This document shows, piece after piece, positions 12,115 through 58,073 of a stretch of DNA of 64,000 nucleotides. The notes below the pieces were generated by a model that was given only the letters and a program-made list of their open reading frames with translations, ran no database searches and was not told the DNA's origin. The number at the start of each line of letters is the position of its first letter. Positions within the stretch are counted from its first letter, which is position 1. The translations under genes and the position numbers were made by a program. This stretch comes from Candidatus Anstonellales archaeon (GTDB lineage: Archaea > Micrarchaeota > Micrarchaeia > Anstonellales > CG1-02-47-40): positions 7,538 to 71,537 of the forward strand of contig JAWCQO010000005.1 in assembly GCA_038869735.1 (NCBI GenBank), read 5' to 3'.

Positions 12115-12256
12115 GGGCTCGTGGCGCAGTGGTAGCGCGCGTGCTTTGCATTTCTGAAAGAGAAATTGATGAGGAACAAAAAAGCACGAGGCCGTGGGTT
12201 CAAAAATGGAAGGGAAAGAGCTTGCTTTCTTCCTTTTGAAATTCCCACCGAGTCCA
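12115..12256 (+). tRNA. tRNA-Ala (UGC) with two introns: canonical 37/38 (about 12151-12182) and T-loop 59/60 (about 12205-12242)
   Basis: Acceptor GGGCUCG/CGAGUCC with a G3:U70 pair, D-arm GCGC-AGUGGUA-GCGC, anticodon stem CGUGC/GCACG with loop UUUGCA[intron]A, T-stem GUGGG/CCCAC interrupted after UUCAAA. Confidence 0.8.
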
Positions 12257-16400: not shown

Positions 16401-16460
16401 AGAGCCAAGCGCAAGCGAGGCTTTCAGCCTGCCCCTTACTAAAAGCCAGATGTATATCAT
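13425..16460 (+). rRNA. 23S: 23S (large-subunit) rRNA; ends approximate to +/-50 nt
   Basis: 5'-domain matches include ggcggatgaagaatgcgagcg, gggaattaaaacattctagtacccgcaggaaaagaaa and ctggaaagtggtgccatagagggtgaaagccccgta. The peptidyl-transferase region has ctgggttcagaacgtcgcgagacagttcggt. The sarcin-ricin loop agtacgagaggaac is at about 16223. Confidence 0.85.
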
Positions 16461-16685
16461 ATCCATTCCCTCTTCTGGAGCTTGCGGTTTTCTCAAAATC
16501 CTTAAAAACACTTTTTTCTGAAGTTCTGGTGCTTGAATGTGTTTAGACTGGCTCTTTCTTGCGCTATCTAACTTCTAATCTTTGCTTTCTATAGTTGTTG
16601 CTGCCTATAGGGTAATAATATTGCCACAATATTGAAAACGAAGGATATAGGCTTCCTTGCGCTATCTGCCTCTAATCTTTGCTAT

Positions 16686-19600
16686 CTAAGTTTCCTCCTC
16701 GCATTTTAGCTGTTGATTTGACACAACGTTTGCAAAGACGCATGACTTGGAGATGTCAAGTCCGGGTTTACATGCTGGAACGTCTCTTCCTCTGTTTCCA
16801 TATATGATTGGGGTTACGTCTCTCCCTGCTACTTCCATTTTTGCATAGGTATGGTATACCTTTTCGTCAGGCTGAATCTGCCCGTCGAGATTGCTGTCCT
16901 CTTCGCTTGCTATGCAACACCTCATGGATGGAGGAAGTGACGCAAGATACTCAATGTACAGGAAGGATTCGTCTTGTTCTGTTTCTGGGTTGTTATAAGA
17001 CATATTCTGAATGGAGGGTGGTTCTTTTACCGTGCCGTCAGTATAAGTACACTTAACAAAATCTTGAGATTCGTCCCCATCGTAAGACGGATTTGTACAG
17101 AGTCTCTCGCTGCATACCTCTCTTCTTGCGCATAGAAGTGGGCATTTATAGCCGTAAGGCCAGTCATCTCCTGCTGGAATATCACACATAGAGCCATCTG
17201 CACAAATATTTGAAACGCCGGCTGTCTGCTCTGACTTTGTTCTTCTTTCACATGTGCACTTCTGGCTATCTGCAACCAATCTAACATAAGTCGTTTTTGT
17301 TGATAAGTCAACGGTGAGCCTTGAGGCGTTTTGAATCACGCAAAATGGCTGCTCCTCTGGAGAGAGAGTCTCATTAAAACCATAAGGTTGGAGTTCATTT
17401 CTTGGCTCATGGATTCCTATAATTCCACTGGAGGATAAGTTTGACGAGAGTTTTATTAGCTCCTGAATCAGTCGCGCCCTGTCTATATCTTGCCAGCTGT
17501 CACACTGAGGAGCCTCTGTTGCCCTTTCTCCAAAGTATATGAGGGATGGTAAGTTGAAATCCATAAGAAGCTTTCTTGAAGCGTTTGTCAAGTTTGTTGC
17601 CATCAGGAGCGCTTGCTCTTCCGGGGACAGCGCGCAGAACGACGGATTTCCTCCTGAATAATAAGCCATTTCGGGAATATAGGGCATTATGATTATCAGG
17701 TCAAGCTCTTTTAAAAATTCAGTGTCTATCGTACCTGGCGAGGGCGTGTGCACTACTCTTTTGTAAGTTATCCCGTTAATTGTTTGTACGTTTCCGTCTG
17801 CCTGCTCATTTAGGAGCAAGGCATAAGAAATTGCATTAACGTCTTGCATTGGAATAGCCTCGCCATCTAAAGTCGGTGAAACGCCTCTAAGGGCAGGAAT
17901 TATGACTGCAGTTAGGGCGTGAGGAAACTTGCGTTTGTAGTATATGACTTTGTTTTTTATGTCTTCTATCTTAGAGGTGTTTCGCAGAAGGTACTGTTGT
18001 CCGTTGTTGTTTAGAATTGTAACCTCTGAGAGGTTAATAGTGTGAAGAGCAAGTATTGTTGTTCCTTGGTCCTTTAGGTATTTTGCAAGATTTGCTGGAA
18101 GAAATGTGTCGAATTTGTTTTGTGGTGAGAGTCTACAGGAGTAATAGGAGTAACATTCTGAAGGATTGTGTTGCTCGCACCACCCGTTTGATGCACAGGC
18201 ACTACCGGTCCATTCACATGATGGAGAATCTTCGCATCGAAGCATGGTTTTGTCTTCGCAGTCGCCTATACAGGAAAAAGAAGTTACATTTGCTAAATAC
18301 GGAAGCGTGTTTGGAACAACAAGAATTGGAAGAGTGGAGGCTTTTTGATATTTTTGTATTTTTACATGGAGGTAGTTTGGGTCTGGCAAAAACGAGGGAC
18401 CTTGGGCAGTCATTGTTGGATGGGGTGATTGGTTGGGTTGTTCGTCTTGGACATACACTGTCACACCCTTTGCGTCTGTGTCGTTGTATGACTTAAAGGG
18501 AGAGGGAGGCGCACAGTCATAACAATATCCATTGGAAGCTGTGCATTCCCCATAGCTCTCGCTTTGAGTAAGGCAAACTGGAGTGTTTTGCTCGGTAGGC
18601 GAAATTTGTTGCACTGCACTGGTAGAAAGTGAGCAGGGCTCGCACCCTCCCCAAGAGTAGATGAGAAGTTGGCCTTCGCGCTCTGGGTCGGAAAGACAGT
18701 CTCCAAAAAGGATTTTTCCAGCATCTTGGCCTTCTCCTTGGTGTGGAGTGATAAGCACAAGGGTTTGGGTTCTTGTTGGTTCCCAGAAAAGTTCATGGGG
18801 CCACCAATCTAAACTGCCTCCCTCATGATCAAAGAATTTAAGCTCGAAAATAGTGAATGTGCCGTATCTTATGTGAAAATCAGTTCCAAGCCTCATGTTG
18901 CAGGCGCTAAGAAGTGGTATTCTTTGTTTTATTTCTTGTTCTGTGTAGTGGGAGTTGTACAGGACAGTATAGGCACGAGAAGTTTCATTAGAAGTCGTTG
19001 TTTTGGACATGTCTATCTCTAGCGGGCCTTCGAGTCTGTTGTTCTCGTACCAGTATCTGCAATTATAATGGTTATCGCCTATCTGACCAACTCCTTGTTG
19101 ATTTTCACCACTGCCTACTGAAATTGAGTGACAGATATACAGCGTATCAGACCACCTATCATTAGGGAATAGAGTTCTTTCATCTGGAATTGGTGGAATT
19201 GCTCTTTCAGGCTGTCCTTCGTATGGGCAGAAGTCTTGATTTCCAAGGCCTTGATAACCTCGGGAGTCTCCGTCTCTAGAAAATGAATAAGTATTGCCGT
19301 CAATTGTAGCAGTACAGCGAAAGGTTTGGGAACTGCCGCTGTTAGAAAAGTTGCCTCCTGTGCAAACATAACATGCTGAACCGACCGATGTATCTCGCGG
19401 ATGAATAGTAGCTCTCATAGGAAGTTTTTCGTTAGCAGAAAGAGCGTTTACCTTGCACTTTGTCTTTCCAAAGCTATCGATGTAGCAGCCGCAGTCAACG
19501 GGCGTTCCGTCTTTAAGAATGCATTTGTTGGTTGGGAGTATATTCTTGTTGCAGATGCCAGAGTAGCACTCCCCGTTTGATTGGCAAAGCGCACTTGCGC

Positions 19601-20981
19601 CCGGAATTATGTTTAGGATTTTTGAGTTGCGATTATCACACAGTTCTGGCCCTACCTGCTCTTCGTTGTCAAGCCTGTTGTTGGAATTTTCATCCAAGTA
19701 GCAAACGCAGCCTGGTTCTGGGCAGTAGCCGTTTGCTATTTCAAATTCGTATTGTTCTTTTATTTTGGAGATATAATAATCGGTGTCTATTTTTTTTGTA
19801 GTCTCTGTTGCGTAAAGCGTGCCATTGGGCCTTGAAATATTTAATTTTTCTTCTGTTGTTACATATTGACTTCTTGCTAAGAATGGTAGATATACTCTCT
19901 CATCAGCCTGTCCTGTTGGGAGAGAGCATGAACGCTGTGGGTAGCAATTATCCATGCACGCTCCTTTGCTTGAGTACTGCTTTCCTGTGCTGGCACAAGT
20001 CCACTTTATTCTCTTTACTATGGATATGTTAAACTCCTTTGTCCAGTGGCACTCGCCGCCGTCGCCGTATTTATAGTCCTCGCATGGTGTTCCCCTTAGA
20101 AGCTCATCTATGTTTGAATAACAGTTTGCTGTTATAAGTACACCCGAAGGAGAATTTACGGGGTGGGCTTCGCCCCATTTAGTTGTATACCCGATAAGGT
20201 AGCCTTTGAGTGGCCCTGATGCAAACTGCCGCTCAACGTAATTTAGATATCTGTCTTTTTGGTATTTGTTATAATCACTAAAGCCGCAGAAGACATCTGA
20301 GATGGGAGTATAAAGGCGCGCCTCTTCGAATGTTGAGAAATTGTTTGCGACTCCAAAGCGGAATGTGTTTATGAACGCTGTCGGAGACGACTTAAATTCC
20401 CTATTTGTCTCTTTGTTGAGTGGCTTGAAAGAACAGAAAGTTCCAAACAGCCCCTCCGGAACATCTGTAAAATCAAAAGAAGAAGTAGAGAAGGCGGTTG
20501 GGTTTAGGTCTTGTGGTTGGGGTAGTGCTCGGTCTCGTGCATTAAGGTAGTCAGACAAACTCATAGATATGCGTGGGTTATAGGAGGTCCTGCCGCAAAT
20601 CATTGCCGCGCAGTCTGGCGCTATACAGGGGTCAGATGGAATTTGGCCGCAAACGGGGATTTTGCTGTCTACACCATTGACACAGCCTGGTGGACACCAT
20701 TGAGGATTTCCATTTGCATCTGCTGGACAGATAGAAGGGTCGCAGTAATATGTGCAGTTTAGCCTTTCATTTTCGGGACCTAAATCTGATATGCTTGGGC
20801 ATTCAAGCCTCTGGCTTCCATTGAGGCTTAGAACATCTCTACATTGAAAGCTTGAGGTGTAGTTACCTGAAGCGCAACAAGAAGTGTATGCGGTTTGAGC
20901 AACGCATCCGACAAGAAAAAGGAGAGGGGATATCACTAAAATGAACGAGCCGATTGATGCCGAAACTGAAATCTTTTTCAT
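16686..20981 (-). CDS. Giant (1431 aa) secreted cysteine-rich protein. It is the last gene of the seven-gene surface operon. It has an N-terminal signal peptide and no C-terminal anchor.
   Basis: Start MKKISVSASIGSFILVISPLLFLVGCVAQ. Cys-rich throughout with many N-x-S/T sites. Only 4 nt separate it from the upstream gene. Confidence 0.75.
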   Translation of the reverse strand: MKKISVSASIGSFILVISPLLFLVGCVAQTAYTSCCASGNYTSSFQCRDVLSLNGSQRLECPSISDLGPENERLNCTYYCDPSICPADANGNPQWCPPGCVNGVDSKIPVCGQIPSDPCIAPDCAAMICGRTSYNPRISMSLSDYLNARDRALPQPQDLNPTAFSTSSFDFTDVPEGLFGTFCSFKPLNKETNREFKSSPTAFINTFRFGVANNFSTFEEARLYTPISDVFCGFSDYNKYQKDRYLNYVERQFASGPLKGYLIGYTTKWGEAHPVNSPSGVLITANCYSNIDELLRGTPCEDYKYGDGGECHWTKEFNISIVKRIKWTCASTGKQYSSKGACMDNCYPQRSCSLPTGQADERVYLPFLARSQYVTTEEKLNISRPNGTLYATETTKKIDTDYYISKIKEQYEFEIANGYCPEPGCVCYLDENSNNRLDNEEQVGPELCDNRNSKILNIIPGASALCQSNGECYSGICNKNILPTNKCILKDGTPVDCGCYIDSFGKTKCKVNALSANEKLPMRATIHPRDTSVGSACYVCTGGNFSNSGSSQTFRCTATIDGNTYSFSRDGDSRGYQGLGNQDFCPYEGQPERAIPPIPDERTLFPNDRWSDTLYICHSISVGSGENQQGVGQIGDNHYNCRYWYENNRLEGPLEIDMSKTTTSNETSRAYTVLYNSHYTEQEIKQRIPLLSACNMRLGTDFHIRYGTFTIFELKFFDHEGGSLDWWPHELFWEPTRTQTLVLITPHQGEGQDAGKILFGDCLSDPEREGQLLIYSWGGCEPCSLSTSAVQQISPTEQNTPVCLTQSESYGECTASNGYCYDCAPPSPFKSYNDTDAKGVTVYVQDEQPNQSPHPTMTAQGPSFLPDPNYLHVKIQKYQKASTLPILVVPNTLPYLANVTSFSCIGDCEDKTMLRCEDSPSCEWTGSACASNGWCEQHNPSECYSYYSCRLSPQNKFDTFLPANLAKYLKDQGTTILALHTINLSEVTILNNNGQQYLLRNTSKIEDIKNKVIYYKRKFPHALTAVIIPALRGVSPTLDGEAIPMQDVNAISYALLLNEQADGNVQTINGITYKRVVHTPSPGTIDTEFLKELDLIIIMPYIPEMAYYSGGNPSFCALSPEEQALLMATNLTNASRKLLMDFNLPSLIYFGERATEAPQCDSWQDIDRARLIQELIKLSSNLSSSGIIGIHEPRNELQPYGFNETLSPEEQPFCVIQNASRLTVDLSTKTTYVRLVADSQKCTCERRTKSEQTAGVSNICADGSMCDIPAGDDWPYGYKCPLLCARREVCSERLCTNPSYDGDESQDFVKCTYTDGTVKEPPSIQNMSYNNPETEQDESFLYIEYLASLPPSMRCCIASEEDSNLDGQIQPDEKVYHTYAKMEVAGRDVTPIIYGNRGRDVPACKPGLDISKSCVFANVVSNQQLKCEEET

Positions 20982-20985
20982 GTAC

Positions 20986-22026
20986 TCATATCACCTTTGA
21001 TATAGCTGAAGTAAGTTCTCCTAATTCCCCTCCAAGGAGTGGTGTTATTATGCGCACAAAAATAAGAGTTAGAGCAAAAGCAATAAATGGATAGTACATT
21101 ATACCGATGGTAAGGGTTGCAAGCTCTGATGAGAAGAGTTCAAATGTACTTCTGCTTATGTCAACGTTCTGGGTTATTGTTGAAAGTGTAACTGATGCGC
21201 CAGAAAAACCGGCATAGCATGCATTGAACACCTCTGTTTTTGGAGTGACGTCTATATCGCCGGATCCGTGAGCATATGCTGGATCCATAACGACATAGAA
21301 TGCAGGGAGTATAAAATAAAAGCCCATCGCAACGGCTATAAGAAGGCCTCCGGCCCCTCTTGTAAATTGAAATATTCGAAGGAGGATGCCAAGAGGAAGA
21401 AAAACTGACAGCATATTCTTCTCTATATAATCGAGGAAGATGTATTGCGCGTGTAGATGGATAAGGAGTGGAGTTATTTTTGAGCCAAGAAGATGGGCGC
21501 GCTCAACATCTCCACGCAAGAACCAGTCACCGCAGTAAACCTGAATGCCTACAAAGCTCAAACAAAATGCAGCTTGCTTTTCGGTTTCTTTGTTTTGTTC
21601 AAAAATTCTCTGATACATTTTGTCAAGAAAGTTTATTTTTTCCTGTATTCTGCACTTTGCAAAGGATATTGGGTTTCCGATTATAAGTCCGTTTTGGTCG
21701 ATTGAAAATGTTATCGGCTGTCCTCCACACTCTATTGCGGTATCTTGGCCTATTATTATTGCAATGGTGATAAATGCGGCTAGGTTGACAAGATTTATAA
21801 GCATGACTATGAGGATTGATGATGCAGATGCCTGAAGCATCTCTGAAATGGCCCAGCGCTTTATATTTTCAAGAGATAATGACCTTCCAATGACGTATAC
21901 TATTGTAAAGAAGAAAATGCATAGTGCTACTGCTGAAAGCGCAACGGCATTCCACCCAAGGCCTTCCCAGACGGAGATGAGGCCTGTGGTTGAGCCATAA
22001 GATTGGAGGATGTATGCGGGCTCCAT
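20986..22026 (-). CDS. Paralog P6 (346 aa) of the new 5-TM membrane family; minimal form with about 105-aa extracellular loop
   Basis: Core motif LPLGILLRIFQFTRGAGGLLIAVAMGFYFILP; C-terminal tail LLGGELGELTSAISKVI. Confidence 0.7.
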   Translation of the reverse strand: MEPAYILQSYGSTTGLISVWEGLGWNAVALSAVALCIFFFTIVYVIGRSLSLENIKRWAISEMLQASASSILIVMLINLVNLAAFITIAIIIGQDTAIECGGQPITFSIDQNGLIIGNPISFAKCRIQEKINFLDKMYQRIFEQNKETEKQAAFCLSFVGIQVYCGDWFLRGDVERAHLLGSKITPLLIHLHAQYIFLDYIEKNMLSVFLPLGILLRIFQFTRGAGGLLIAVAMGFYFILPAFYVVMDPAYAHGSGDIDVTPKTEVFNACYAGFSGASVTLSTITQNVDISRSTFELFSSELATLTIGIMYYPFIAFALTLIFVRIITPLLGGELGELTSAISKVI

Positions 22027-23037
22027 TCATATCAACCTCGATAATCTTCCTGCATCAACCTCTTGTCCTAACAATCCTGAAACCTGCGATATAGCCGCAA
22101 CAACAACAATAAGATTGATGGAAGTTATAAAGACTGAACCAAAGAATATTAGAGTTGCATTTTTTATAAGGAAGATAACGTCTGTACCTTCTTGGATTGT
22201 AGAGGAGTAAATCGCTGGAAAGAAAAGGCCCTCCAACATCAAGAGGAACGGAAAGAAGATGTAAAGCGCGACTCCAAGGCCTATCAGGGAACCTCCAAAC
22301 ATGCGCATAAATGGTATGCTGCGAAGTATGATACCCCAAACAAGGCAGAAGATGAGAAAGGAGTTAGTATAATCGGTGCCTACAAGAAGAATGTTATAGA
22401 CGCCTATCTGCGCAAGGATGGTAGCAAGGGATATTAGAGACGAGTTCATAAACAAAGTGAGAACTGCGTTGTGTGCCTGCACTCCGGATTCTGGATTTAA
22501 AGAAACTCCAGAACCCCCAAGGATGCAGAGGGTTTTGCAGTTCCATAGTGTGAGAGTCAATTTCCTTTCATTTAGGCCTATAATTTCGCGTAGATTATAA
22601 AACGTAGAATAGGAGATTGTTTGCATATAGACTAAAAACTTTTTTGCTGCAGTGTAGACGTTGTCTGACTCCTGAAAATCTACATTGGCTTGAGATTCAA
22701 TAGGTATCTGCGGAAGGTTGGTGAGCGTTACTGCGCTTCCTACCTCAATAGAGCAGAAGAGCGTCAAAATTTGGAGTATTAGTGCAATTATAATGGCAGT
22801 GCTGATAAGTTGCATAACTTCATCTTTTGACCAGGCCACTAGCCGAGGATAGCTGAGAAACTCTCCAGCAGCATATGTTATTGCTATCAGTCCTGCAAGT
22901 GCCGCAAATCCCGCGGTTGCGTAAGAGATTGCAGGCGAAAATAGATTTTGTGGCTGCTCACATATCGCTTGTTGGGAAAATGCAAACCCTCCGAGGGCAA
23001 GAACAAAAAATAATAGTGTGTTGTTTGTTCTTATCAT
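22027..23037 (-). CDS. Paralog P5 (about 336 aa). The likely start is at 23037 (MIRTNNTLLFF...), overlapping the P4 stop as ATGA; the longest ORF reaches 23097.
   Basis: Signal-like N-terminus; core motif ILRSIPFMRMFGGSLIGLGVALYIFFP; tail LLGQEVDAGRLSRLI. Confidence 0.7.
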   Translation of the reverse strand: MIRTNNTLLFFVLALGGFAFSQQAICEQPQNLFSPAISYATAGFAALAGLIAITYAAGEFLSYPRLVAWSKDEVMQLISTAIIIALILQILTLFCSIEVGSAVTLTNLPQIPIESQANVDFQESDNVYTAAKKFLVYMQTISYSTFYNLREIIGLNERKLTLTLWNCKTLCILGGSGVSLNPESGVQAHNAVLTLFMNSSLISLATILAQIGVYNILLVGTDYTNSFLIFCLVWGIILRSIPFMRMFGGSLIGLGVALYIFFPFLLMLEGLFFPAIYSSTIQEGTDVIFLIKNATLIFFGSVFITSINLIVVVAAISQVSGLLGQEVDAGRLSRLI

Positions 23038-24317
23038 TGCGACAACCTCACAAGGGTCGATATGTCTATTTGAGAGCCAAACATTGCTGCAAGCCACTGG
23101 ATAAACAGAAGCGTTATTGTTAGGTTCAGCGCAGTCGCAAATATGGAGCGCAGATATACTTGAAAGATGAGTGGTTCAAAGTTGTAAATGCTTTTGTTAT
23201 CGCCTATTTCTGTTTGGCCGATTAATGGTTCGATGAATTTTTCGCGTGTGCTTGCGTAGGAAAAATCAAATGGGTCGCATGTTTGAGTGCGAATCGTATT
23301 TGCAAGATTAGAATTTTGGTTGCTTCTGTAAGCTTGCAAGTACTCATTAGAGTCTAAAATTTCTCCAAAAAGAATTTTTTCTGAAAAAAGGAAAGTAAGC
23401 GGCAGGACAAGGTATAGCCCAGCTGCAAATGCTATTAACGTTCCACCTACTTTTCGCGTGAAGTTGAAAGTGCGAAGGAAGATTCCTATAGGAAGCAGGA
23501 TAGAGAAAGCATAATTCTTTGCAAAGCTCATGATAAGGAAAATTGCCTGAAAATCTGTAACAGCAAGAGACAATGATGTTGTCGCATGGGTGATGGAAGG
23601 GCGCATTGCATTTATGGCGGAACATGTGATTATTGAATACCCAACACCTAATATTGAGCAATAGCCGGATTTTGAGCCTTCTTGTCCCGATTTCTTTGAA
23701 ATTTCAAGATAGTTTGAGAGTAGGTCTTCGTAATTGCTCTTTACATCTTCAAGGGTTGCAAACGCGTAGTCATAAAATGTCCCCTCTACTTCTGCCCCAC
23801 CAGCTAAAGACTTAAATGCTGGGAGGAGAGAGGCGTCTAGATAATAAGCCATGCTAGTAAGAGAAGCTAGAATCAGTGCTGTAAAGATAAGTTGGGTCAG
23901 CTCATCTTTAGTATAGGTTTTTAGTTCAGTTATATTGAAGACGGAGCTACCCATATAAAGTAGCGATATTAATGAAGCGGAGATAAGAAAAGCTATGAGT
24001 ACTAGAGGAAGCCATTGTGACTGGCAACGGCAGTTAGAGCATGAGGCAGTTAAAGGACATCCGCCTCTTAGTTCTACTGCAGAAACTTCGCACTCCTCGC
24101 CTTGGTCAAGAACTCCGTTTCCACAGATTGGAAGCTGAACGTTGACGTTTTCTGCAATACATTCGCCGTTTTGGCAGATATAACCTTCTTGACATGGAGG
24201 GGAGCAGAGTGCAGCGTTTCCTCCTTCTCCAGCGGAGAAAAGAACAGCTGAGGCTAGGATAATGAAAAAGAGCTCAAGTATCAACGCCTTTTGTTGCTTC
24301 ATTTTGCTCCACATCAC
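23034..24317 (-). CDS. Paralog P4 (427 aa). It has a signal peptide, a small Cys-rich N-terminal ectodomain with one CGNGVLDQGEEC repeat, and the 5-TM core.
   Basis: ICGNGVLDQGEECEV. Core FLRTFNFTRKVGGTLIAFAAGLYLVLP. Tail AAMFGSQIDISTLVRLSQ. Confidence 0.7.
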   Translation of the reverse strand: MMWSKMKQQKALILELFFIILASAVLFSAGEGGNAALCSPPCQEGYICQNGECIAENVNVQLPICGNGVLDQGEECEVSAVELRGGCPLTASCSNCRCQSQWLPLVLIAFLISASLISLLYMGSSVFNITELKTYTKDELTQLIFTALILASLTSMAYYLDASLLPAFKSLAGGAEVEGTFYDYAFATLEDVKSNYEDLLSNYLEISKKSGQEGSKSGYCSILGVGYSIITCSAINAMRPSITHATTSLSLAVTDFQAIFLIMSFAKNYAFSILLPIGIFLRTFNFTRKVGGTLIAFAAGLYLVLPLTFLFSEKILFGEILDSNEYLQAYRSNQNSNLANTIRTQTCDPFDFSYASTREKFIEPLIGQTEIGDNKSIYNFEPLIFQVYLRSIFATALNLTITLLFIQWLAAMFGSQIDISTLVRLSQ

Positions 24318-26614
24318 AAAAATCTTGATATTCCCGGAAGTTCTATATCTCCTCCGAATGTTTGGGAAAAAACTCTAATGAATGCTATCAAGACAACTAT
24401 ATTAAAGAGTGGAAGAACGTAAGCAGGAATTGCAAGCACACCTACATTTTTTGTGTCACTCATGGTTGTTTTTGCTCCTGTCTGGCTGGATATAAAGCCT
24501 GCAGGGGTAAAATCGCGTGAAGCGGCGGTTGGGAGATTGCAAACTTCTGCACAATTTGTCCGTATTGGGGGTATTGTGGTGCAGTCATCATCACATTTGA
24601 GGCACGAAGTGCAAAGTGATGGCGGTGAGTCTGTTGTGAAATTGCTTTTGCATTCCTTGTTGCAATATGGTTCAAGGCAACTTGCGGGACAGTTTATGTC
24701 TCCAGCGTCTGCAACTCTGCACCTTTTTGGGCATGCAGAACATGTTCCGTCGGGTTGTGGTTGTATTGAGCCGTAGTTTTGACGAGTTGGAAAGTTTGCA
24801 CAGTTTTGAGAGGGAGAGGGGATCTGAATTCCACAATAAGCTCGACAGGCAACACAGGAAGGGTTGGTCCTACAATGTAATTGGAAGTAGTTGTCAGCGT
24901 CCTCATTGTCTTGGATGTTGGCGATGCGGCATTCGCGCTGGCAGCTTCCGCAAAGGGTAAGGCAGTCAAGTAGTTTTGGGTCTGGAATCCCTATCCTGCA
25001 GTTTGGTTCGTTTTCGCTTCTTCCCATTGGGCAATGTTCTTCTGTACATTCCTCGCATGCTTTCCAGACAGATTCTCCGTTTTCCTGCACTGGAAAGTCT
25101 GATGGCTTTGGAATTCTCCAATAGCCATCGACGGGGTCGTTTGGGTCATCATCTGACTTATCATCCGGATAAAGTGGATTGAAGTAATAAACACGACAAA
25201 AGTCTGGGCATAGTGTGCACTTGCCTTGGCATTCTGGCGACATATAACTGACTGAATTTATTATTGCACATCCAGATATATAGCAGCCATCTTGAGAATC
25301 TTCTATTCTATTTGCTCTGGAGCAAGTATTTTCACCAAATAACTGTTTGATTTCCTCCGGGGGGTCGGGTTTTTCGTCATCAGAAAAACATGTTGTCCTC
25401 TCGCGATAAGGGACATATGCTTGGTTGTCTGAATTCAGCTTACTTTTTCCTCCAACCTTACACTCGTCCGGGCAAGTGGAGCAAACGGCCCGTACATCAA
25501 CGTCCTTAACTATTTGACCTGCGTGTTCAGAGTCTTCTGCTATGAGATCTGATTTGGTGCAAGAAGGATTTTGGATAGGATAGGGAATTTCTCTACATAT
25601 GGAGGGACATGAGAGGATTACGGTTTGGCCAGTTATAGTCTCACCTTCTTGATTTACAACCATTTGATTTGTCAGTTGTCTCTTGCAACTTCCAAGCTCT
25701 TCGCAAGTGTTTATTTTCGGTGGGTTGAAAGTGCATTCTCCAGGACAATAATCTGGAGGTGGGGAGACCATCTGGTCTCCAAACACTGCAACTTTTAGAG
25801 TAAACCAAGAAAAGACGTAGAGCATTGGCCAGACTAAAAGCAGGGATATTCCGATTGCAAGTAAAAGCCCTCCTAATCTGCGCGAAAAGAAAAATGTGCG
25901 GAGGATAACTCCATAAAAAATGAGCACAGATGAAAGAGATGCTGACTGCGGGTTATTTGTTGAAGCCAGATTGGATAGAAAGCTTTTTTGGGTGGCAAGC
26001 GAAGAGTATATCCCTGAGAGAACATCGAAGTTGTATGAATATCTTTCTGTGTACATGGAATAGCCGGCATTTTTTCCTGAATAATAAGCGGCCCAGAGTG
26101 TGTAGTACGTGTTGGTAGACACTCCTTCTCGCTCAGAGGATTTTTTTGCATTTTCAAACGCATCTATGAGATTTGATTTTAGCGTTGAGTTTGTAATTGA
26201 AAGAAGCGAATCTAAGTAGCACAAACCAAGCGAGATTACATACGGCTGATTCTGGATGGGTTGGCAGGCAAATTGGCCTGCTGTTATTGATAGTAGAAAC
26301 GAAGAAAGGAACGAGAAAATAGCGATAAGAGAGATTATTATCAGAGCTGAAGCAAAGACTTGTGAGAGTTCTGTATTTGCCCAGACTTTTATTTCTGGGA
26401 TGTTTAGCCCTATCCCAACAATATATGCAATAGAAACGATGGATAAGGAGATGGCCAGCGCGATTATTGATGCCGATTGCCAATTTCCATTTCCAAGAAA
26501 TTGATTATATGTAAGATCTATGGGGGATAGCTGTAGGAGTGGCTGTGGGTACGAGAAAGTAGAGAATAGCAAAAGAACGAGGAGGATCTGCGTCTTTTTT
26601 AATTTTGTATTCAT
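24314..26614 (-). CDS. Paralog P3 (766 aa). The 5-TM core carries an about 420-aa Cys-rich ectodomain inserted between TM4 and TM5 rather than at the N-terminus.
   Basis: Core VILRTFFFSRRLGGLLLAIGISLLLVWP is followed by a long Cys-rich region. Final TM and tail: FIRVFSQTFGGDIELPGISRFL. Confidence 0.7.
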   Translation of the reverse strand: MNTKLKKTQILLVLLLFSTFSYPQPLLQLSPIDLTYNQFLGNGNWQSASIIALAISLSIVSIAYIVGIGLNIPEIKVWANTELSQVFASALIIISLIAIFSFLSSFLLSITAGQFACQPIQNQPYVISLGLCYLDSLLSITNSTLKSNLIDAFENAKKSSEREGVSTNTYYTLWAAYYSGKNAGYSMYTERYSYNFDVLSGIYSSLATQKSFLSNLASTNNPQSASLSSVLIFYGVILRTFFFSRRLGGLLLAIGISLLLVWPMLYVFSWFTLKVAVFGDQMVSPPPDYCPGECTFNPPKINTCEELGSCKRQLTNQMVVNQEGETITGQTVILSCPSICREIPYPIQNPSCTKSDLIAEDSEHAGQIVKDVDVRAVCSTCPDECKVGGKSKLNSDNQAYVPYRERTTCFSDDEKPDPPEEIKQLFGENTCSRANRIEDSQDGCYISGCAIINSVSYMSPECQGKCTLCPDFCRVYYFNPLYPDDKSDDDPNDPVDGYWRIPKPSDFPVQENGESVWKACEECTEEHCPMGRSENEPNCRIGIPDPKLLDCLTLCGSCQRECRIANIQDNEDADNYFQLHCRTNPSCVACRAYCGIQIPSPSQNCANFPTRQNYGSIQPQPDGTCSACPKRCRVADAGDINCPASCLEPYCNKECKSNFTTDSPPSLCTSCLKCDDDCTTIPPIRTNCAEVCNLPTAASRDFTPAGFISSQTGAKTTMSDTKNVGVLAIPAYVLPLFNIVVLIAFIRVFSQTFGGDIELPGISRFL

Positions 26615-29119
26615 TTACATCCCTATTTCAGAAACCTTACGGATTGCGGATGCAAACCCATGCACTGAGGTTATTATTATAATTATCGCGAGATTCGGAA
26701 GAAAAACGGCTTGTGGGAGAAGCAAGGCGAGCGTTTTAAAGGAAACGTGTGGGTCTGCAGCAATATAAAATGAATCAAGAACTTGGCTTGTTAGAGGATA
26801 TGTGTTTGCGAAGAGGGTATAGATTGCTGGAAATATTAAGTAAAGTGAAAAGCAGAGTGCCATAAGATAGTTTCCTGCGGTCCTGGTTGGTGGAAGGACT
26901 CTTAGAAAAATTGCAAAGGATAGGAAGAGTACTATTATTGGTTGGTTTTCTTGAGGGGTGGAAATGAAAAGAAGCCTAAATAGTTCTAACTGGAGTTTTA
27001 TGCTGACTATCATTGGTATGAGCAGGTCTATCATCACTTCCTGGGATTGTGAATACGCTCTCCTGATTGCGTCTTTTGATTCTCCTTTGCCACCTTTAAA
27101 TGGAATGCCAACAAAGAGATAGTTTGTTGCTTTGAGTTGATTAGTAAGACTACCTTCAGTTAGACGTTGAACTTCTGCCGTTCCGATTCTTTGAAGAGAG
27201 TCAAGGTATTTTGTTGAGTAAACGTACATCGTTGTACCTTCCGGGACATTTAAAAATGAGCCTATGACGGCGTTTGAGTTTTCAAGAAAGTTTGTTGCTA
27301 GAATCAAAACGGCAAAAATAGCTGACCAACCAAGATGCACTGCTTCGTCTCTTAGCAATATGTCAAGATGTACATTGCCTCCGAAATATTTTGAGTACAT
27401 AAATGCAAGGGCTATGAGCAGGACGATTAAAAAAAATGCAGAGTGCACCAGTGCAGCGATGTTGCCTGAGCTAGGGCAGTCCTGTTGACAATAGACAGGT
27501 TCTGCTCCTTCACATCTGCCGTTTCCACATTCAAATGATGTTTGGATGCACCTGCAAGAATAGGGGTCGCAACTAAACTTTTCACTACAGTTGTTTTCTA
27601 TTCCAGGATCGCACTCTTCGCCTTGGTCAAGAACTCCGTTTCCACAAAGCATTTGAGGAGGCTGTTTAGTTATTAAAACCTCCTTGCTTTCTTGCGCTGA
27701 GATTATGCTATCTGAATAGATAATCGACGCTTTAAACACCAGTGTTTTTCCTTCTGAGCAGGACTCATAGAGTGGGCATACTATTGACCTTGTTAGTTGT
27801 TGGTCTGCCTGTACTTGTGTAGAGCCACTTAACAGCACTTCGGATGAAGATTCTGAACGGATTACCCACTCCCACTCAAGACTTTGGGGGCTAACACCTT
27901 CTGGAGACGGAATGGTGATCCGTAATGATGGTGATTGTGACTCTGTGGCGGGGTTTGGCGTAATGTCAGAAAGAATTGGAGGGGGATGTTCTGGCACTAA
28001 TTCATCTATAGTAGCTTCGTCAAATGTTTCATTGGAGGTGTAGCGTTCTCCTTGGCCATAAGAAAGAGTTGCATAAAACCTAAGAGTTGAACGATCAGGG
28101 CAACCGTTATCCAGATTGAAGCAGTAGTAGGTTTGATATGAGTAATTTGTTGTTCCTCTTCTGTAGGCCTGTGTTCCTTGATGAATGGTTACACTCATTC
28201 CGTCCGGTTGCGTTAATTCGAAGCGCCAGTTTATAGTGTTGGGCTCAATGATGTTTTCAGGTATTGTGACGATTCCGTTAAAAACGTCTCGGGGATTCGC
28301 ACGTTTTGGTTTAATTGAAACTGATGGTGGGAGGATAGGTTCATAGTATGCATCGTCAGATTGAGAGTAATCAGTGCAAGCATAAACAGAGCATGCCCTT
28401 ACACGAACATGAACGTTTCTTGGTGATGAGGCTGAGCACCCTGGATAGTCTGAGCATCTAAAAGACATTGCTGATTGGCCCTCCATCCATGGAGTTTCAA
28501 AGTCTGGTCCGTCTCCAAGATAGGCAACCCACTTAAATTGATAGATAAAGTTACTTGCGTCTCCCTGTCCGGCAGTGACAAGTTGACATGAGGAGCGGCC
28601 GGATATTTGGTTGCAATAATTTCTATTTGCGACAGTGGCTGAATCTATTCCTGAAGTGTATCCTCTGCATCGAATGTTCCACGGAGGTCCACTTTCGCCT
28701 TCAAGCCCTTCATCTGGGACACAAGAGTTTGAGTTTACATCCCAGTGACAACCGGCGGGTTGCTCTTGAAGAAAATAAGGAGCGTTATAATCGCTATATT
28801 GGGCACTCAAAGAATTACAATTATTTTGGTTTAGGATACTGCATCTTGCTTGTGAATTTTGAGCTCCCTGAGCAAGCTGGCATAATCTGCTGGCAAAATA
28901 ACTCCCTGCTCGGCAGCCTCCGCTCCAGTCATTGCTTATGCTAACTGTTGTTGAATACGAAGGAATTGAAATTAGTGTGAGCTCTGGTTTTTCTGGAATG
29001 CCGGACACAACATTACCGCCTGCACCCTCGTCATCATCACCGATTATGCAATTTTGTGACATAAGAAATTGAGCAGCAAATACTAGAAAGAGCAGGATGA
29101 AACTATAGGGGCTTTTCAT
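26615..29119 (-). CDS. Paralog P2 (834 aa). It has a signal peptide, an about 520-aa Cys-rich N-terminal ectodomain ending in CGNGVLDQGEECD, and the 5-TM core.
   Basis: LCGNGVLDQGEECDPGIENNC. Core AIFLRVLPPTRTAGNYLMALCFSLYLIFP. Tail SAIRKVSEIGM. Confidence 0.7.
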   Translation of the reverse strand: MKSPYSFILLFLVFAAQFLMSQNCIIGDDDEGAGGNVVSGIPEKPELTLISIPSYSTTVSISNDWSGGCRAGSYFASRLCQLAQGAQNSQARCSILNQNNCNSLSAQYSDYNAPYFLQEQPAGCHWDVNSNSCVPDEGLEGESGPPWNIRCRGYTSGIDSATVANRNYCNQISGRSSCQLVTAGQGDASNFIYQFKWVAYLGDGPDFETPWMEGQSAMSFRCSDYPGCSASSPRNVHVRVRACSVYACTDYSQSDDAYYEPILPPSVSIKPKRANPRDVFNGIVTIPENIIEPNTINWRFELTQPDGMSVTIHQGTQAYRRGTTNYSYQTYYCFNLDNGCPDRSTLRFYATLSYGQGERYTSNETFDEATIDELVPEHPPPILSDITPNPATESQSPSLRITIPSPEGVSPQSLEWEWVIRSESSSEVLLSGSTQVQADQQLTRSIVCPLYESCSEGKTLVFKASIIYSDSIISAQESKEVLITKQPPQMLCGNGVLDQGEECDPGIENNCSEKFSCDPYSCRCIQTSFECGNGRCEGAEPVYCQQDCPSSGNIAALVHSAFFLIVLLIALAFMYSKYFGGNVHLDILLRDEAVHLGWSAIFAVLILATNFLENSNAVIGSFLNVPEGTTMYVYSTKYLDSLQRIGTAEVQRLTEGSLTNQLKATNYLFVGIPFKGGKGESKDAIRRAYSQSQEVMIDLLIPMIVSIKLQLELFRLLFISTPQENQPIIVLFLSFAIFLRVLPPTRTAGNYLMALCFSLYLIFPAIYTLFANTYPLTSQVLDSFYIAADPHVSFKTLALLLPQAVFLPNLAIIIIITSVHGFASAIRKVSEIGM

Positions 29120-31162
29120 TTATATCAACCTATAAAGACCAATTATTCTGGTATCGCCTCCAAGAACTTCTGATGTGCCTTTGGTCATTACGACCGTTAT
29201 AAAAACTGTTAAGAGGATGGATATTAGCGCATTTGTGTAAAAGCCAGATATTAGATGTAGAACTGATTCAAGAGGGGAGTAATAGTCTGAAATGAGCTCT
29301 GATTGAGATATTGCTGCATAGTTATAGAGTGCTGGCCCAAATGGAAGCGGGAATCCCTGCACAATTGCAAGGTAAGTTAGCTTTACTATGTTCGCACATG
29401 AAAAGAAGCCGCCTGCAGTGGCAGGATTTGACAGAAGAATACTACATATGAGCCACTCATAGAAGTCTTCTCCGGGTAAAACGAACAGCGCAAATGTAGA
29501 TGAACACACTAAACTTTGTGCTGGTGGACTACCGGGATCAAAATCAGTTGCATTTTTTATTGAGTTTAGGTCTAAGTTTGTTTGTGTATAGGCCCATGAG
29601 GCAAAAACGATACTGGCAGGAAACCAAAGATATGCTCCAATACACACAGCAATAAGGGTAGTACCTACCCTTCTTGTTAATGGAAATGTTCTTAGGGCAA
29701 ACGCAGCTGGTAGAAGAAGTGTTGGGATTGTTGATGAGAAAAAGTAAAGAAGCATTTTTTGTATTGAAAAGGCATATATTATTTTTGATAAATTATCCAA
29801 AGCTTGGAGGATGCTTGAGGTTAGGATAGATAGTCCAGCTGATGGAGAACGGGATATAAATTTATTTGAGTAAAACGGAATAAGTGGAGTGCTTAATGAA
29901 TAAGAAAAACTTGAAATCTTTGAAATGTAAAAGTTTACTTCAGCCAGATAGTTTATTGAATTTCTCGAATTCTGGATAAAGTAATCAATGTGAGAAATCG
30001 CAGCTGAAGTCATATCTGGAGAACCCGTAATCGCACTTGCAAATGTCTCTATTCCAGCTATAGCAATAATGGTGGCAATTATTAATGCTGCACTTGCAAA
30101 AACCTCTCTAAATTCTGATTTTGACCAAACGTGGAGTTGGATTGAGTTGGTAAATTCTGCAAGCATATAGGCAATGGCTGAAATTACGACGGCTGCAAAA
30201 AGACCTATTAGGATTATTGGTGAAATAGCGATTTGGACTGCATTGCCAAATAGGCGCGGGGCTGAAACGCACTGGCAACTTTCACAAATAAAGGCGTCTG
30301 CACATTGGTTGGTGTATTCACACTGTTCGTTTTCTTCGTCAATTATTCCGTTTCCACAATAAGGTGGGTTTGCTCTAGCCACTTCATTTACTGACACACA
30401 AGAACAGGAGAAGCATCTCTGACCGACTTGGCAGTCTGCATCTGAATCGCACTCTTCGCCTTGGTCAAGAACTCCGTTTCCACAGCTGGATGTGAAAGTA
30501 TAGGGATTGAAATCTCTAATTGATTCACATGTGCAATTTTGAGAGCATGTGTAGCCTGGAGCACAATTGTTTGTGTTTATGTCGCATTCCTCTCCAGCAT
30601 CTAAAAATCCATCACCGCACTGTGGTCCAAAAGCTATCTGTTCGGCTGTTGGGCTGCATTGGTTATTTAGGCAGGAATATCCTGCTTTACAATCAGCATT
30701 TGTTAGGCATGATGTTTTGCATGTGCAAGATTGCGAGCAGACGTATGCGCCACAGTTGAGGTTTTGTTCTTTGTCGCATTCCTCTCCAGCATCTAAAAAT
30801 CCATCACCGCATACTGGAAGGGAAGATACGCACTGGCAACTTAGAGGATCGCAGAGTTGTCCGCTTTTGCAGATTATTTTAGAATCAGCCGGGTCACACT
30901 GTTCCCGTCCCGTAATTTTTCCGTCGCCGCATACTGAGTTATCCTGTACGCACTGGCATCCGGGGTTACAGTAAAAGCCGAATGGGCAATCGCTGTGAAT
31001 TTCGCATTGCTCTTGTGGTTGCTCGACTATTCCGTTTCCGCATATGTGAGCAGGGGGGCTACTTTGAGCAAAGAAAACTCCGCTTGAAAGGAGAAGAGTG
31101 AAAAATAGTATGGCGAATATGGAGCGCTTGTCAAAAATCACAAAGCCAAGCATCATAAACAC
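29120..31162 (-). CDS. Paralog P1 (680 aa), first gene of the operon. It has a signal peptide, six DUF4215-like Cys-rich repeats in the N-terminal ectodomain, and the 5-TM core.
   Basis: Repeats CGNGIVEQPQEQCE, CGDGKITGREQCD, CGDGFLDAGEECD x2, CGNGVLDQGEECD, CGNGIIDEENEQCE. Core FALRTFPLTRRVGTTLIAVCIGAYLWFP. Tail LGGDTRIIGLYRLI. Confidence 0.7.
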   Translation of the reverse strand: MFMMLGFVIFDKRSIFAILFFTLLLSSGVFFAQSSPPAHICGNGIVEQPQEQCEIHSDCPFGFYCNPGCQCVQDNSVCGDGKITGREQCDPADSKIICKSGQLCDPLSCQCVSSLPVCGDGFLDAGEECDKEQNLNCGAYVCSQSCTCKTSCLTNADCKAGYSCLNNQCSPTAEQIAFGPQCGDGFLDAGEECDINTNNCAPGYTCSQNCTCESIRDFNPYTFTSSCGNGVLDQGEECDSDADCQVGQRCFSCSCVSVNEVARANPPYCGNGIIDEENEQCEYTNQCADAFICESCQCVSAPRLFGNAVQIAISPIILIGLFAAVVISAIAYMLAEFTNSIQLHVWSKSEFREVFASAALIIATIIAIAGIETFASAITGSPDMTSAAISHIDYFIQNSRNSINYLAEVNFYISKISSFSYSLSTPLIPFYSNKFISRSPSAGLSILTSSILQALDNLSKIIYAFSIQKMLLYFFSSTIPTLLLPAAFALRTFPLTRRVGTTLIAVCIGAYLWFPASIVFASWAYTQTNLDLNSIKNATDFDPGSPPAQSLVCSSTFALFVLPGEDFYEWLICSILLSNPATAGGFFSCANIVKLTYLAIVQGFPLPFGPALYNYAAISQSELISDYYSPLESVLHLISGFYTNALISILLTVFITVVMTKGTSEVLGGDTRIIGLYRLI

Positions 31163-33681: not shown

Positions 33682-34278
33682 GTGTTATATTGGTTGTGGT
33701 TGTTGCTTATGGGAGAAATGGAGGAATGGGCTTACGTTCTTGATTTTATGCCGCAGGGGATGGCTGCTTCTCGAGAAGCCGAACCGTTGGCACAGGTTAT
33801 TGGAACAAAGTTTTTCACCTTACTTGAAGTTATTCTGAAGCCGGGAGTTGCGGTTTCTATTGAATCAAAGGTTTATGTGGGGCGAGACAAACGCGTAGAG
33901 GTTGATAGGATAAAAAGAAGAATTGGTGTCCGAGAACTAACAAATACTGCAAAGACAGAGCTGCATCCGGTTTTGAAAAAAATTGTGCAGGAAAGAGAAA
34001 AGGATTTTGTACAGTTCTTTAACAAGTGCGGTCCTATATCAATAAGACTGCACCAACTTGAGCTTCTTCCGGGGGTTGGAAAAAAGCATATGGAGCAGAT
34101 ATTGGAGGAGAGGGAGTTGAGGGGATTTGAGACCTTTGCTGATATAAGAAACAGAGTGACCTTGCTTAGTGACCCATTAAATATAATTGTTACAAGGATC
34201 GCGCGGGAGTTAGAGGGCGTTGAAAAATACTATCTTTTTGTAAAGCCTCCTCTATCGTCAAAGAAAGGATTATATTAA
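33682..34278 (+). CDS. DUF655 (COG1491) HhH-containing RNA-binding protein. The true start is probably MEEWAYVLDF.
   Basis: EEWAYVLDFMPQG ... LELLPGVGKKHMEQILEERE. This is the conserved L21e-RpoF-DUF655 triad. Confidence 0.7.
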   Translation: MLYWLWLLLMGEMEEWAYVLDFMPQGMAASREAEPLAQVIGTKFFTLLEVILKPGVAVSIESKVYVGRDKRVEVDRIKRRIGVRELTNTAKTELHPVLKKIVQEREKDFVQFFNKCGPISIRLHQLELLPGVGKKHMEQILEERELRGFETFADIRNRVTLLSDPLNIIVTRIARELEGVEKYYLFVKPPLSSKKGLY

Positions 34279-34308
34279 AAAGAAAAGGGGATATTTTTTA
34301 GTGTTGGT

Positions 34309-34455
34309 GGGCCCGTAGCGCAACGGATAGCGCGCTTGGCTTCGGTCACAATTGAGCCTGAAAGTGGAAGAAACCAAGAGGTTGCGGGTTCGAATCAGCT
34401 GATGTTAGGACTTTGACATTGCCTAAGCATAACTGTGACAATCCCGTCGGGCCCG
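34309..34455 (+). tRNA. tRNA-Arg (UCG) with two introns: canonical 37/38 (about 34346-34372) and T-loop (about 34396-34442)
   Basis: Acceptor GGGCCCG/CGGGCCC+G, D-arm GCGC-AACGGAUA-GCGC, anticodon stem CUUGG/CCAAG with loop CUUCGG[intron]A, T-stem GCGGG/CCCGU with UUCGAAU interrupted. Confidence 0.75.
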
Positions 34456-34498
34456 TTATTTGGCTTAGGCATCATTTGGTTTAGAAGGTGGGGGGAGG

Positions 34499-35002
34499 AT
34501 GTCGGCAGGCAGAAGGAGGATTAAATCGGTTTGCGCTTTTATCTTTTTCTTTGTTTTGGTTGGGTTATTTTATGGTCTTGAGCTTTTGGTTTCCAATGCC
34601 ACTGTTGGAAAGGACATTTATGTTTTAGTTTATGAGGAAAGAGGCGAGTTGTTTGATGGGGTGGGGAAGGCTCAAACTCCAACGGGCGCTGAAATTTTTT
34701 TTGAATTATATCATGGGCAGGGGAGAATAAATGCTAGTGAGGTTGGTAGGTGGGAGATCTGGGTTGGGGAAGAAAAAAGAGATGTGTTTGTCTTTGACGA
34801 GAAGCCGCGAACGAGGGTGTTTGAGGGGCAAGCCGATTTTTTTCTTCTTTTTTCTTTTTTGCTTGCACTTGTAGTTGTATTTGGGTTTTTAGGTGTCGTT
34901 TTTATTTGTAGAAAGCTTGTTTTGGAAGAAGAGAGAGTGGATTTGATTAGGGAAACGCGAAAGCGAACACTTGGTAGGGAGGAAGCAGGACGTGGCAGAT
35001 AA
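34499..35002 (+). CDS. Hypothetical membrane protein (2 TM)
   Basis: Hydrophobic N-terminal and central segments. Confidence 0.4.
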   Translation: MSAGRRRIKSVCAFIFFFVLVGLFYGLELLVSNATVGKDIYVLVYEERGELFDGVGKAQTPTGAEIFFELYHGQGRINASEVGRWEIWVGEEKRDVFVFDEKPRTRVFEGQADFFLLFSFLLALVVVFGFLGVVFICRKLVLEEERVDLIRETRKRTLGREEAGRGR

Positions 35003-52424: not shown

Positions 52425-52514
52425 CGCTCCGACCGGGATTTGAACCCGGGTTACCGGCTTTCTTCACGAAAATTTGAAAGGCCGGCGTCCTTGACCGGGC
52501 TAGACTATCGGAGC
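52425..52514 (-). tRNA. tRNA-Glu (UUC) with a short (about 15 nt) canonical anticodon-loop intron
   Basis: RNA sequence GCUCCGA..GUCU-AGCCCGGUCAA-GGAC..CCGGC-CUUUCA[AUUUUCGUGAAGAAA]A-GCCGG..CCGGG-UUCAAAU-CCCGG-UCGGAGC-G. Confidence 0.7.
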
Positions 52515-56862: not shown

Positions 56863-56969
56863 AGCGGGATGGGGTAGTTTGGAGTGCCCGCTGGGCTCAT
56901 AACCCAGAGATCGGTGGTTCAAAGTTCTGGTTTTTATGGAAACCAGAAATGAAAGTCCACCTCCCGCTA
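56863..56969 (+). tRNA. Initiator tRNA-Met (CAU) with a non-canonical T-loop intron (about 56922-56955)
   Basis: A1:U72 acceptor AGCGGGA/UCCCGCU; three G:C pairs in anticodon stem CUGGG-CUCAUAA-CCCAG; T-stem GGUGG/CCACC split after UUCAAAG by a hairpin-forming insert. Confidence 0.8.
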
Positions 56970-57812
56970 CTTCCACTAATCAAATATACGTGGTTGGTTT
57001 TCTGTTCTCTATTTTAGTCAAATATTATTGATTGGTTCTTAATCAGATATGGTTGGTTCTCTAATTGTTTGGTTTGGTTGTTGTTTGTTAGTCTAGAAAT
57101 TCTGGGTTCTTTTTCTATTTTGTTTTTTGGTTGTAGTCTATTTATAAAGTAAACCTAAACTATTATTAATATTTTATGTAACTATAGTTACATTATGTTA
57201 TTATATTTCTACGATTTGAAAGCAAAAGATTTAAGACTATATAATAACATAAAACGCCGATTTTATTACGAACTATCAACATCAAAACTCACACAAGCCT
57301 TTTTTAGAACAAAATCCGTCTTAGTAGTTCCAGATGAATTAGAAACGTATGCAGATAATTTTTTTAAAAAATATTCAGAATATCTAGAAGTTTACAAAGC
57401 TCGAACACGCCTCATCCTTCAAATAAACTAACTCCGTATTCTCAACTACACATAACATATAAACAACAACATATAAACAACAAGCGCAGTTTCTAATAGA
57501 ATAAACAAAAACAGAAATCACAACCAAACCCAACCAAACACTCAACAAATATCCCAACTCGCCCATCTATTAAAGCTAACAAAAACTATACTCCTTCTTT
57601 AATTATTCCTTCTTTAATTATATTACCTTCTTAAATAAACAAAAAATTAATTATATTACCTTCTTAAATAAACAAAAAAAGCAAAACAATAAATTATAGT
57701 TCAAAGTACTTAGTTAAGTATTCGGCGAGACACTACTAGACACTAATTAATTGGTAGGTGTTAAACAACTAAGTAGGGTTAAAACAATTAGTGGAAGCGT
57801 CCCCCCACACTA

Positions 57813-58073
57813 TTATAAACTAGCACTCCCCCCAGCAGCACTTTTTGATACAACAACCACATCTTCAATAGACCGAACACTTTTAAACAAAACACTTCGA
57901 TCTCTAAGTATTTTTTTTGCTTCTTCTTTTGATACGACATTTAATGGTTCCATAGTAAGACGGACAACTTCTCCTGCCTCTAAATCAATAATAATATCCT
58001 GTACCTTACCAAGAAATCTTCCTCCATCAGTGTAGATATCCATTCCGTATATTGATGAAAGCGCCATGCTCAT
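57813..58073 (-). CDS. PRC-barrel domain protein
   Basis: GMDIYTDGGRFLGKVQDIIIDLEAGEVVRL fits the PRC barrel pattern. Confidence 0.5.
   Translation of the reverse strand: MSMALSSIYGMDIYTDGGRFLGKVQDIIIDLEAGEVVRLTMEPLNVVSKEEAKKILRDRSVLFKSVRSIEDVVVVSKSAAGGSASL

Follow-up and report, generated by a model that had tools for sequence, protein, structure and literature searches.

The tRNA-Arg(UCG) gene and its surroundings

The tRNA-Arg(UCG) precursor occupies positions 34309-34455 of the forward strand of the 64-kb stretch of DNA that was analyzed (hereafter, the window). It is 147 nt long, starts with G1 at 34309, ends with the discriminator base G73 at 34455 and consists of three exons separated by two inserts. 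When the inserts, located at 34346-34372 and 34395-34441, are taken out, the remaining 73 nt are recognized by ARAGORN as tRNA-Arg(tcg), a perfect cloverleaf with all four stems (7, 4, 5 and 5 bp) intact and the anticodon UCG at positions 34-36. U8, G18G19, U33 and the T-loop UUCGAAU can be read from the spliced sequence. The first-pass annotation of this DNA had proposed a tRNA-Arg(UCG) with a 27-nt insert after position 37 and a 47-nt insert in the T-loop, and the spliced cloverleaf, together with the scoring of splice motifs described below, shows that the coordinates, the lengths of the inserts and their positions were right.

Exon 1 (34309-34345, tRNA positions 1-37; GGGCCCG UA GCGC AACGGAUA GCGC G CUUGG CUUCGG) was delimited by ARAGORN on the spliced sequence and contains the 5' strand of the acceptor stem, the D-arm, the 5' strand of the anticodon stem and the loop bases C32 U33 U34 C35 G36 G37. 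Exon 2 (34373-34394, positions 38-59; A CCAAG AGGUU GCGGG UUCGAA), delimited in the same way and by splice register scoring, provides A38, the 3' strand of the anticodon stem, the AGGUU variable loop, the 5' strand of the T-stem (GCGGG) and the T-loop bases U54 U55 C56 G57 A58 A59. Exon 3 (34442-34455, positions 60-73), read from the sequence and from the ARAGORN fold, is made of U60, the 3' strand of the T-stem (CCCGU), the 3' strand of the acceptor stem (CGGGCCC) and G73; the CCA end is not encoded. A putative archaeal TATA-like box, TTATATTAAAAA, lies on the same strand at 34270-34281, i.e., 28-39 nt 5' of tRNA position 1, and the T-rich tract TTATTT that immediately follows the gene (34456-34461, forward strand) is likely its transcription stop. 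Past this tract, the 3' trailer sequence GCTTAGGCA (34463-34471) is perfectly complementary over 9 nt to TGCCTAAGC (34420-34428) within the second insert, which may be a chance occurrence.

The gene is surrounded by housekeeping genes, those coding for Dus, TBP, L21e, Rpo4, a DUF655 protein and KsgA, and genes of PheRS-beta, aIF5B, GTPases, L7Ae and Nop5 are found elsewhere in the window, whose G+C content is 41.6%. The window belongs to a tiny DPANN archaeon of the phylum Micrarchaeota, order Anstonellales, and a protein labelled 'Candidatus Anstonellales archaeon' matches the DUF655 protein with 100% identity; KsgA, read here as 257 aa, is 250 aa long in the database gene calls, which use a different start. 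Separately, a run of seven large ORFs (1431, 346, 356, 427, 766, 834 and 680 aa) occupies 16686-31162 of the reverse strand; the only Pfam signal recorded for this run is a faint DUF4215 match in the last ORF, and the products may be secreted or located at the cell surface.

Three NCBI metagenome-assembled genomes (MAGs; GCA_038870215.1, GCA_038849675.1 and GCA_038868935.1) and two independent Logan assemblies of separate sequencing runs contain the 147-nt precursor without a single difference. An apparent insert might be produced by faulty or chimeric assembly, and the source of the window is itself a MAG; since the same sequence was obtained in five independent assemblies, and since the insert has bulge-helix-bulge (BHB) complementarity of its own, we consider this explanation ruled out, with a probability that is close to nil.

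A strict and a near-strict bulge-helix-bulge motif are predicted at the intron borders

The intron-exon borders were scored, in every register allowed by the sequence, for the geometry of a 3-nt bulge, a 4-bp helix and another 3-nt bulge, with cuts after the second base of each bulge. Intron 1 (34346-34372, forward strand, 27 nt), which interrupts the canonical position 37/38, forms a strict hBHBh' motif: its central helix, C32UUC35/GAAG, has all four pairs and is flanked by the bulges GG|U and AA|A38, with the anticodon stem (5/5) as outer helix and a 3-bp inner helix, CAC/GUG. Shifting the register by a single base abolishes the motif, and a BHB of the same quality is found in 0.09% of shuffled introns (P=0.0009).

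Intron 2 (34395-34441, forward strand, 47 nt) lies in the T-loop. Its junction could be placed anywhere from 57/58 to 60/61 by sequence because AAU is repeated at both borders, but 59/60 is the only register that creates a BHB; none is formed at 57/58, 58/59 or 60/61, which were rejected. At 59/60 the T-stem serves as the outer helix (5/5), AA|U and AA|U60 form the bulges, and an internal hairpin follows the 3-bp inner helix CAG/CUG. The central helix has three of four pairs, U55-A, C56-G and G57.U, the U54xC mismatch adjoining the 3' bulge. A motif this good occurs in 1.3% of shuffled introns (P=0.013), and we read it as near-strict. The fold with both BHBs is feasible, with a constrained energy of -42.9 kcal/mol versus -49.3 kcal/mol for the free minimum, so that the thermodynamic optimum lacks the double BHB, although these energies come from a naked-RNA model not designed for enzyme-bound motifs.

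No second copy of intron 2 exists within the window. An Rfam search of the region spanning both introns (34346-34441) at E<=10 returned no RNA family inside either of them, C/D families included, and the idea that the introns carry a C/D-box guide RNA was dropped; the imperfect box-like elements CUGAUGU and CUGU that can be picked out in the introns by eye are both used in the BHB helices. As to C/D-box RNAs in the window at large, a weak match to the sR4-like C/D-box sRNA family (20.7 bits, E 2.5, gathering score 50) was observed at 34604-34661 of the forward strand, inside the ORF 34499-35002. L7Ae (6309-6815) and Nop5 (9687-10478) are likewise encoded in the window, and the ORF at 10647-11285 may code for fibrillarin.

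T-loop introns occur in three tRNA genes of the window that ARAGORN and the Rfam tRNA model miss

A T-loop-aware scan found six tRNA genes in the window (Pro, Ala, Arg, Glu, Lys and initiator Met), three of which, those of tRNA-Arg, tRNA-Ala and initiator tRNA-Met, have an intron at 59/60. The tRNA-Ala(UGC) gene (12115-12256, forward strand) is interrupted at 12151-12182 (32 nt, position 37/38) and 12205-12242 (38 nt, position 59/60), and both of its central helices are complete (4/4). BHB scoring thus bears out the earlier suggestion that tRNA-Arg and tRNA-Ala share the same pair of intron positions. The initiator tRNA-Met(CAU) gene (56863-56969, forward strand) has a single 32-nt intron, 56924-56955, at 59/60. 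In tRNA-Ala and in initiator tRNA-Met alike, T-loop bases 54-57 give a 59/60 central helix with four of four pairs, and no other register fits. The recurrence of this design supports the two-intron reading of tRNA-Arg. The tRNA-Glu(UUC) gene (52425-52514, reverse strand) contains a minimal intron of 15 nt at 37/38 with a strict BHB, and ARAGORN with default settings miscalls it as 'tRNA-??? (tcaa)'.

Two of these genes have neighbors that deserve mention. About 1.3 kb separate the tRNA-Ala gene from the downstream 23S rRNA gene (13546-16462, archaeal LSU rRNA); there is no 16S rRNA gene in the window and the rRNA genes therefore appear to be unlinked. Directly 3' of the initiator tRNA gene, seven small ORFs without Pfam matches follow each other on the forward strand (57195-60183), and the G+C content over 57001-60800 is 35.9% versus 41.6% for the window. 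An integrated mobile element might account for this run of ORFs, but a search of the window for att-like repeats of tRNA ends, that of the initiator tRNA included, found none.

The unspliced tRNA-Arg gene is not called by ARAGORN, with intron mode on or off, or by Rfam at the gathering threshold. With a relaxed threshold, the Rfam tRNA model gives it 25.2 bits (the gathering score is 29) and aligns it with the T-arm left out and CGGGUUCG as the 3' strand of the acceptor stem. According to the first-pass annotation, the two-intron reading would be overturned by an alternative folding that has no introns and a higher covariance score; the low-scoring alignment just described is not such a folding, and folding of tRNA-Arg with one intron or none was ruled out on the grounds of its low score and the lost T-arm. 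The orthologous gene of Candidatus Micrarchaeota archaeon CG1_02_49_24 (L001), which naturally has no T-loop insert, scores 55.7 bits with the same model. Unspliced tRNA-Ala scores 22.4 bits, and initiator tRNA-Met is seen neither by ARAGORN nor by Rfam, even at E<=5. Altogether, three of the window's six tRNA genes, that of the initiator tRNA among them, escape both ARAGORN and the Rfam tRNA model, and counts made with such tools would accordingly understate the tRNA sets of these genomes of Micrarchaeota. The searchable genome papers on Micrarchaeota, including those that discuss Anstonellales, used tRNAscan-SE and do not mention tRNA introns. The value of the tRNA-Arg case is thus chiefly practical, for annotation.

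Relatives and the history of the introns

Orthologues of tRNA-Arg(UCG) with nearly identical exons were found in L001, L009-L011 and L015. In the closest relative, L015 (SRR25508629), whose DUF655 protein is 79% identical to the one encoded in the window, a tRNA gene in the same place has a 38-nt intron at 37/38 and the contig ends inside the T-stem. In L009-L011, where the DUF655 proteins are 72% identical, the 37/38 intron is 171 nt long and the T-arm is continuous; in L009, positions 38-73 form one unbroken stretch that is identical to exons 2 and 3 of the window gene at 36 of 36 positions, and the 5' exon differs by 2 nt. L001 has a 42-nt intron at 37/38 and no T-loop intron. Its exon 1 matches the degenerate exon-1 search pattern and differs at D-loop positions only, and L001 was the sole other organism returned by pattern scans of genome and metagenome DNA for tRNA-Arg. 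In both L001 and L009 the T-loop reads UUCGAAU without interruption, and it is this continuity in the relatives that fixes the exon borders of the window gene. The more distant L016, L019, L022 and L023 have no tRNA gene beside the DUF655 gene, which is directly followed by that of KsgA, and are therefore uninformative about the intron.

The 37/38 introns of the relatives (38, 42 and 171 nt) are unrelated in sequence to the 27-nt intron of the window gene, and the pairing of the 37/38 central helix is kept across the orthologues, an A-to-G change in L015 retaining a U.G pair. Judging from these alignments, the exons are under selection while the introns vary freely in length and sequence. The T-loop intron of tRNA-Arg(UCG) is carried by one species only, and its lineage-specific gain would be the simplest scenario because both relatives with a readable T-arm, L001 and L009, lack it. 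This makes tRNA-Arg a clean case of intron presence and absence between close relatives, which is useful for dating the gain.

Two further features were observed in the genomes of the relatives. In L009 (region 3561-4726), three small ORFs are inserted between the DUF655 and tRNA-Arg(UCG) genes. In L001 (region 2920-3307), a second arginine tRNA gene, Arg(CCU), has a 233-nt intron at 37/38 with a complete central helix (4/4), and the 15-nt sequence ATCCTCCCGGGCCCG of its 3' end is repeated in direct orientation 80 nt downstream, in what resembles a vestigial integration site.

The absence of the T-loop insert from two relatives could also be taken to mean that the window gene is a decaying pseudogene inactivated by a 47-nt insertion, with another copy of the gene doing the work. 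Neither ARAGORN nor Rfam calls the gene, as such a view would have it, and the tRNA scan was confined to the 64-kb window. The exons, however, are intact and almost unchanged relative to a species whose neighboring protein is only 72% identical, the insert is positioned exactly so that a BHB can arise, which it does in this one register only, the same architecture is present in tRNA-Ala and initiator tRNA of the window, and the sequence is the same in all five assemblies. We therefore consider a pseudogene very improbable and hold, with high confidence, that the locus encodes a functional tRNA-Arg(UCG) with two introns that are spliced via BHB motifs.

It is possible, though we would not put it higher than a tentative idea that is rather unlikely to be correct, that position 59/60 is an active hot spot at which this lineage of Anstonellales has recently been gaining introns, without copy-and-paste transposition. 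Such an intron is present in three of six tRNA genes within 64 kb, the initiator tRNA gene included, and that of tRNA-Arg appears to be younger than the split from relatives with a 72% identical DUF655 protein. Pairwise local alignments of seven introns were, once corrected for 21 comparisons, no better than those of shuffled sequences and transposition between the introns was rejected; because the introns are unrelated in sequence, gain at such a hot spot would differ from the copy-and-paste transposition proposed for Thermoproteales. If this reading is true, these genomes provide a natural series for studying how BHB introns arise.

The splicing endonuclease

From the two introns of tRNA-Arg, the first-pass annotation had argued for a splicing endonuclease (EndA) with relaxed hBH specificity or of a homotetramer type, and had suggested that the type of the EndA gene be looked up elsewhere in the genome. 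No credible EndA gene was found in the window by phmmer with the Methanocaldococcus jannaschii (M. jannaschii) EndA or by an HMM built from 120 ε2 EndAs, both run on the six-frame translation; a weak match at 59800-60180 was dismissed as it had no Pfam support. The M. jannaschii protein also led to the sequence of PDB entry 4FZ2, the ε2 EndA of ARMAN-2, which we used as a query. It has well over 100 homologues of about 385 aa; the best 120 of them are about 370-405 aa long and the named ones are mostly from Micrarchaeota. A profile search over 1.84 billion cluster representatives, combined with cluster look-ups, recovered two EndA clusters labelled as Anstonellales: P0251, of 371 aa, and P0456, which has five members and a length of 375 aa.

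The sources of P0456 are GCA_038849995.1 and SRR27730043, sister assemblies in the same accession series. Residues 6-375 of P0456 align to residues 12-387 of 4FZ2 with E=5e-88. The P0456 sequence PGVNPSQEKEWIHSKH stands where ARMAN-2 has PGAKPIKENNEWIHSKH; in both proteins these are extra residues that precede the conserved HSKH with the catalytic histidine and are absent from M. jannaschii EndA. A structure published in 2025 assigns the ARMAN-specific loop a role in binding the bulge (PMC12397907). The lengths of P0251 and P0456 and the end-to-end alignment to 4FZ2 indicate that the order Anstonellales has a three-unit ε2 EndA, and no EndA of α4 length could be linked to this order in these searches. 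None of the EndAs recovered is from GCA_038849675.1, GCA_038870215.1 or GCA_038868935.1, the three MAGs that match the window. The look-up of the EndA type thus gave a partial answer: a three-unit ε2 enzyme in other Anstonellales assemblies, and no EndA in the window. Because the recovered enzymes belong to other assemblies, we infer the type for this genome, whose own EndA is most likely ε2.

The ε2 EndA of ARMAN-2 is reported to cut both strict and relaxed BHBs, while the strict 3-4-3 hBHBh' motif is indispensable to the α4 and α'2 types (PMC3239211), and archaeal EndA recognizes the BHB rather than its position in the tRNA (PMC4090602). Of the two options put forward initially, relaxed specificity agrees with the ε2 EndA of the order, and the homotetramer type is unsupported, since α4 and α'2 are the enzymes that require the strict motif. 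The two introns by themselves do not call for a relaxed enzyme, intron 1 being strict and intron 2 only one U·C mismatch away from it. For this very reason, another type of endonuclease might act on the same two-intron tRNA, be it (αβ)2 or one of the strict types, α4 and α'2, for which a near-strict pair of motifs might suffice; that the EndAs at hand are from other assemblies and that the window has none would leave room for it. We find this improbable, because both Anstonellales clusters are three-unit proteins of 371-375 aa that align end to end with the ARMAN-2 ε2 enzyme, because the best 120 matches to the ARMAN-2 query have similar lengths and, where named, are mostly from Micrarchaeota, and because in ARMAN lineages an α4-length enzyme accompanies few disrupted tRNAs (PMC3239211).

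Proposed maturation pathway

With ε2 as the favored enzyme, the following pathway can be proposed. The precursor would fold with each intron-exon border placed inside a 3-nt bulge of a BHB. At 37/38, anticodon-loop bases 32-35 would pair with the 3' end of intron 1, and at 59/60, T-loop bases 54-57 would pair with the 3' end of intron 2 in a helix stacked on the T-stem. EndA, most likely of the ε2 type, would then make all four cuts, each behind the second base of a bulge; the three exons would be joined by an RtcB-type ligase, and CCA would be added after exon joining. The analysis shows how exons and introns are arranged, the geometry of the BHBs, the conservation of exons next to changing introns and the occurrence of ε2 EndA in the order. 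From DNA and protein sequences we infer cleavage and ligation of tRNA-Arg, the type of EndA in this genome and the gene's promoter and terminator.

Comparison with known systems

Intron 1 is similar to canonical archaeal introns at 37/38: positions 32-35 pair with intron positions -6 to -3 in a textbook 3-4-3 hBHBh' motif. Unlike the genes with canonical introns, tRNA-Arg has a second intron in the T-loop, and no RNA family was detected in either of its introns. The split and tri-split tRNA genes of Nanoarchaeum equitans and Caldivirga have BHB-like junctions cut by EndA, as is proposed here; a split or permuted gene was, however, rejected for tRNA-Arg, and trans-joining is not needed, because its three exons are colinear and contiguous on one strand within 147 nt.

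Position 59/60 is listed among the non-canonical intron positions of archaeal tRNAs, and tRNAs of Thermoproteales/Crenarchaeota have up to three introns at non-canonical positions that include 59/60 (PMC4090602). [quoted passage not shown] It differs in that those hosts use an (αβ)2 EndA (PMC4090602), unlike the ε2 enzyme of Anstonellales, and in that introns of Thermoproteales often share sequence, which has been interpreted as transposition (PMC4090602), whereas the introns in the window have no significant similarity to each other.

The closest parallel is Candidatus Micrarchaeum acidiphilum ARMAN-2, where pre-tRNA-Cys(GCA) has an intron at 59/60 and pre-tRNA-Pro(GGG) has two, at 53/54 and 59/60 (Fujishima et al. 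2011, PMC3239211). The two archaea belong to the same phylum and share BHB introns at 59/60, more than one intron per tRNA and a lineage with three-unit ε2 EndA. The differences are in the order (Anstonellales), the tRNA (Arg(UCG)), the pair of positions (37/38 and 59/60) and the motif, the 59/60 BHB of tRNA-Arg being predicted from sequence to be near-strict, in contrast to the relaxed hBH of ARMAN-2 tRNA-Cys. Introns at 59/60, two-intron tRNAs and an ε2 EndA of broad specificity are already known from ARMAN-2 (2011), and the tRNA-Arg case reveals no new mechanism; what it does is add a second order of Micrarchaeota, beside the ARMAN-2 group, to the known link between an ε2 EndA of broad specificity and heavily interrupted tRNAs.
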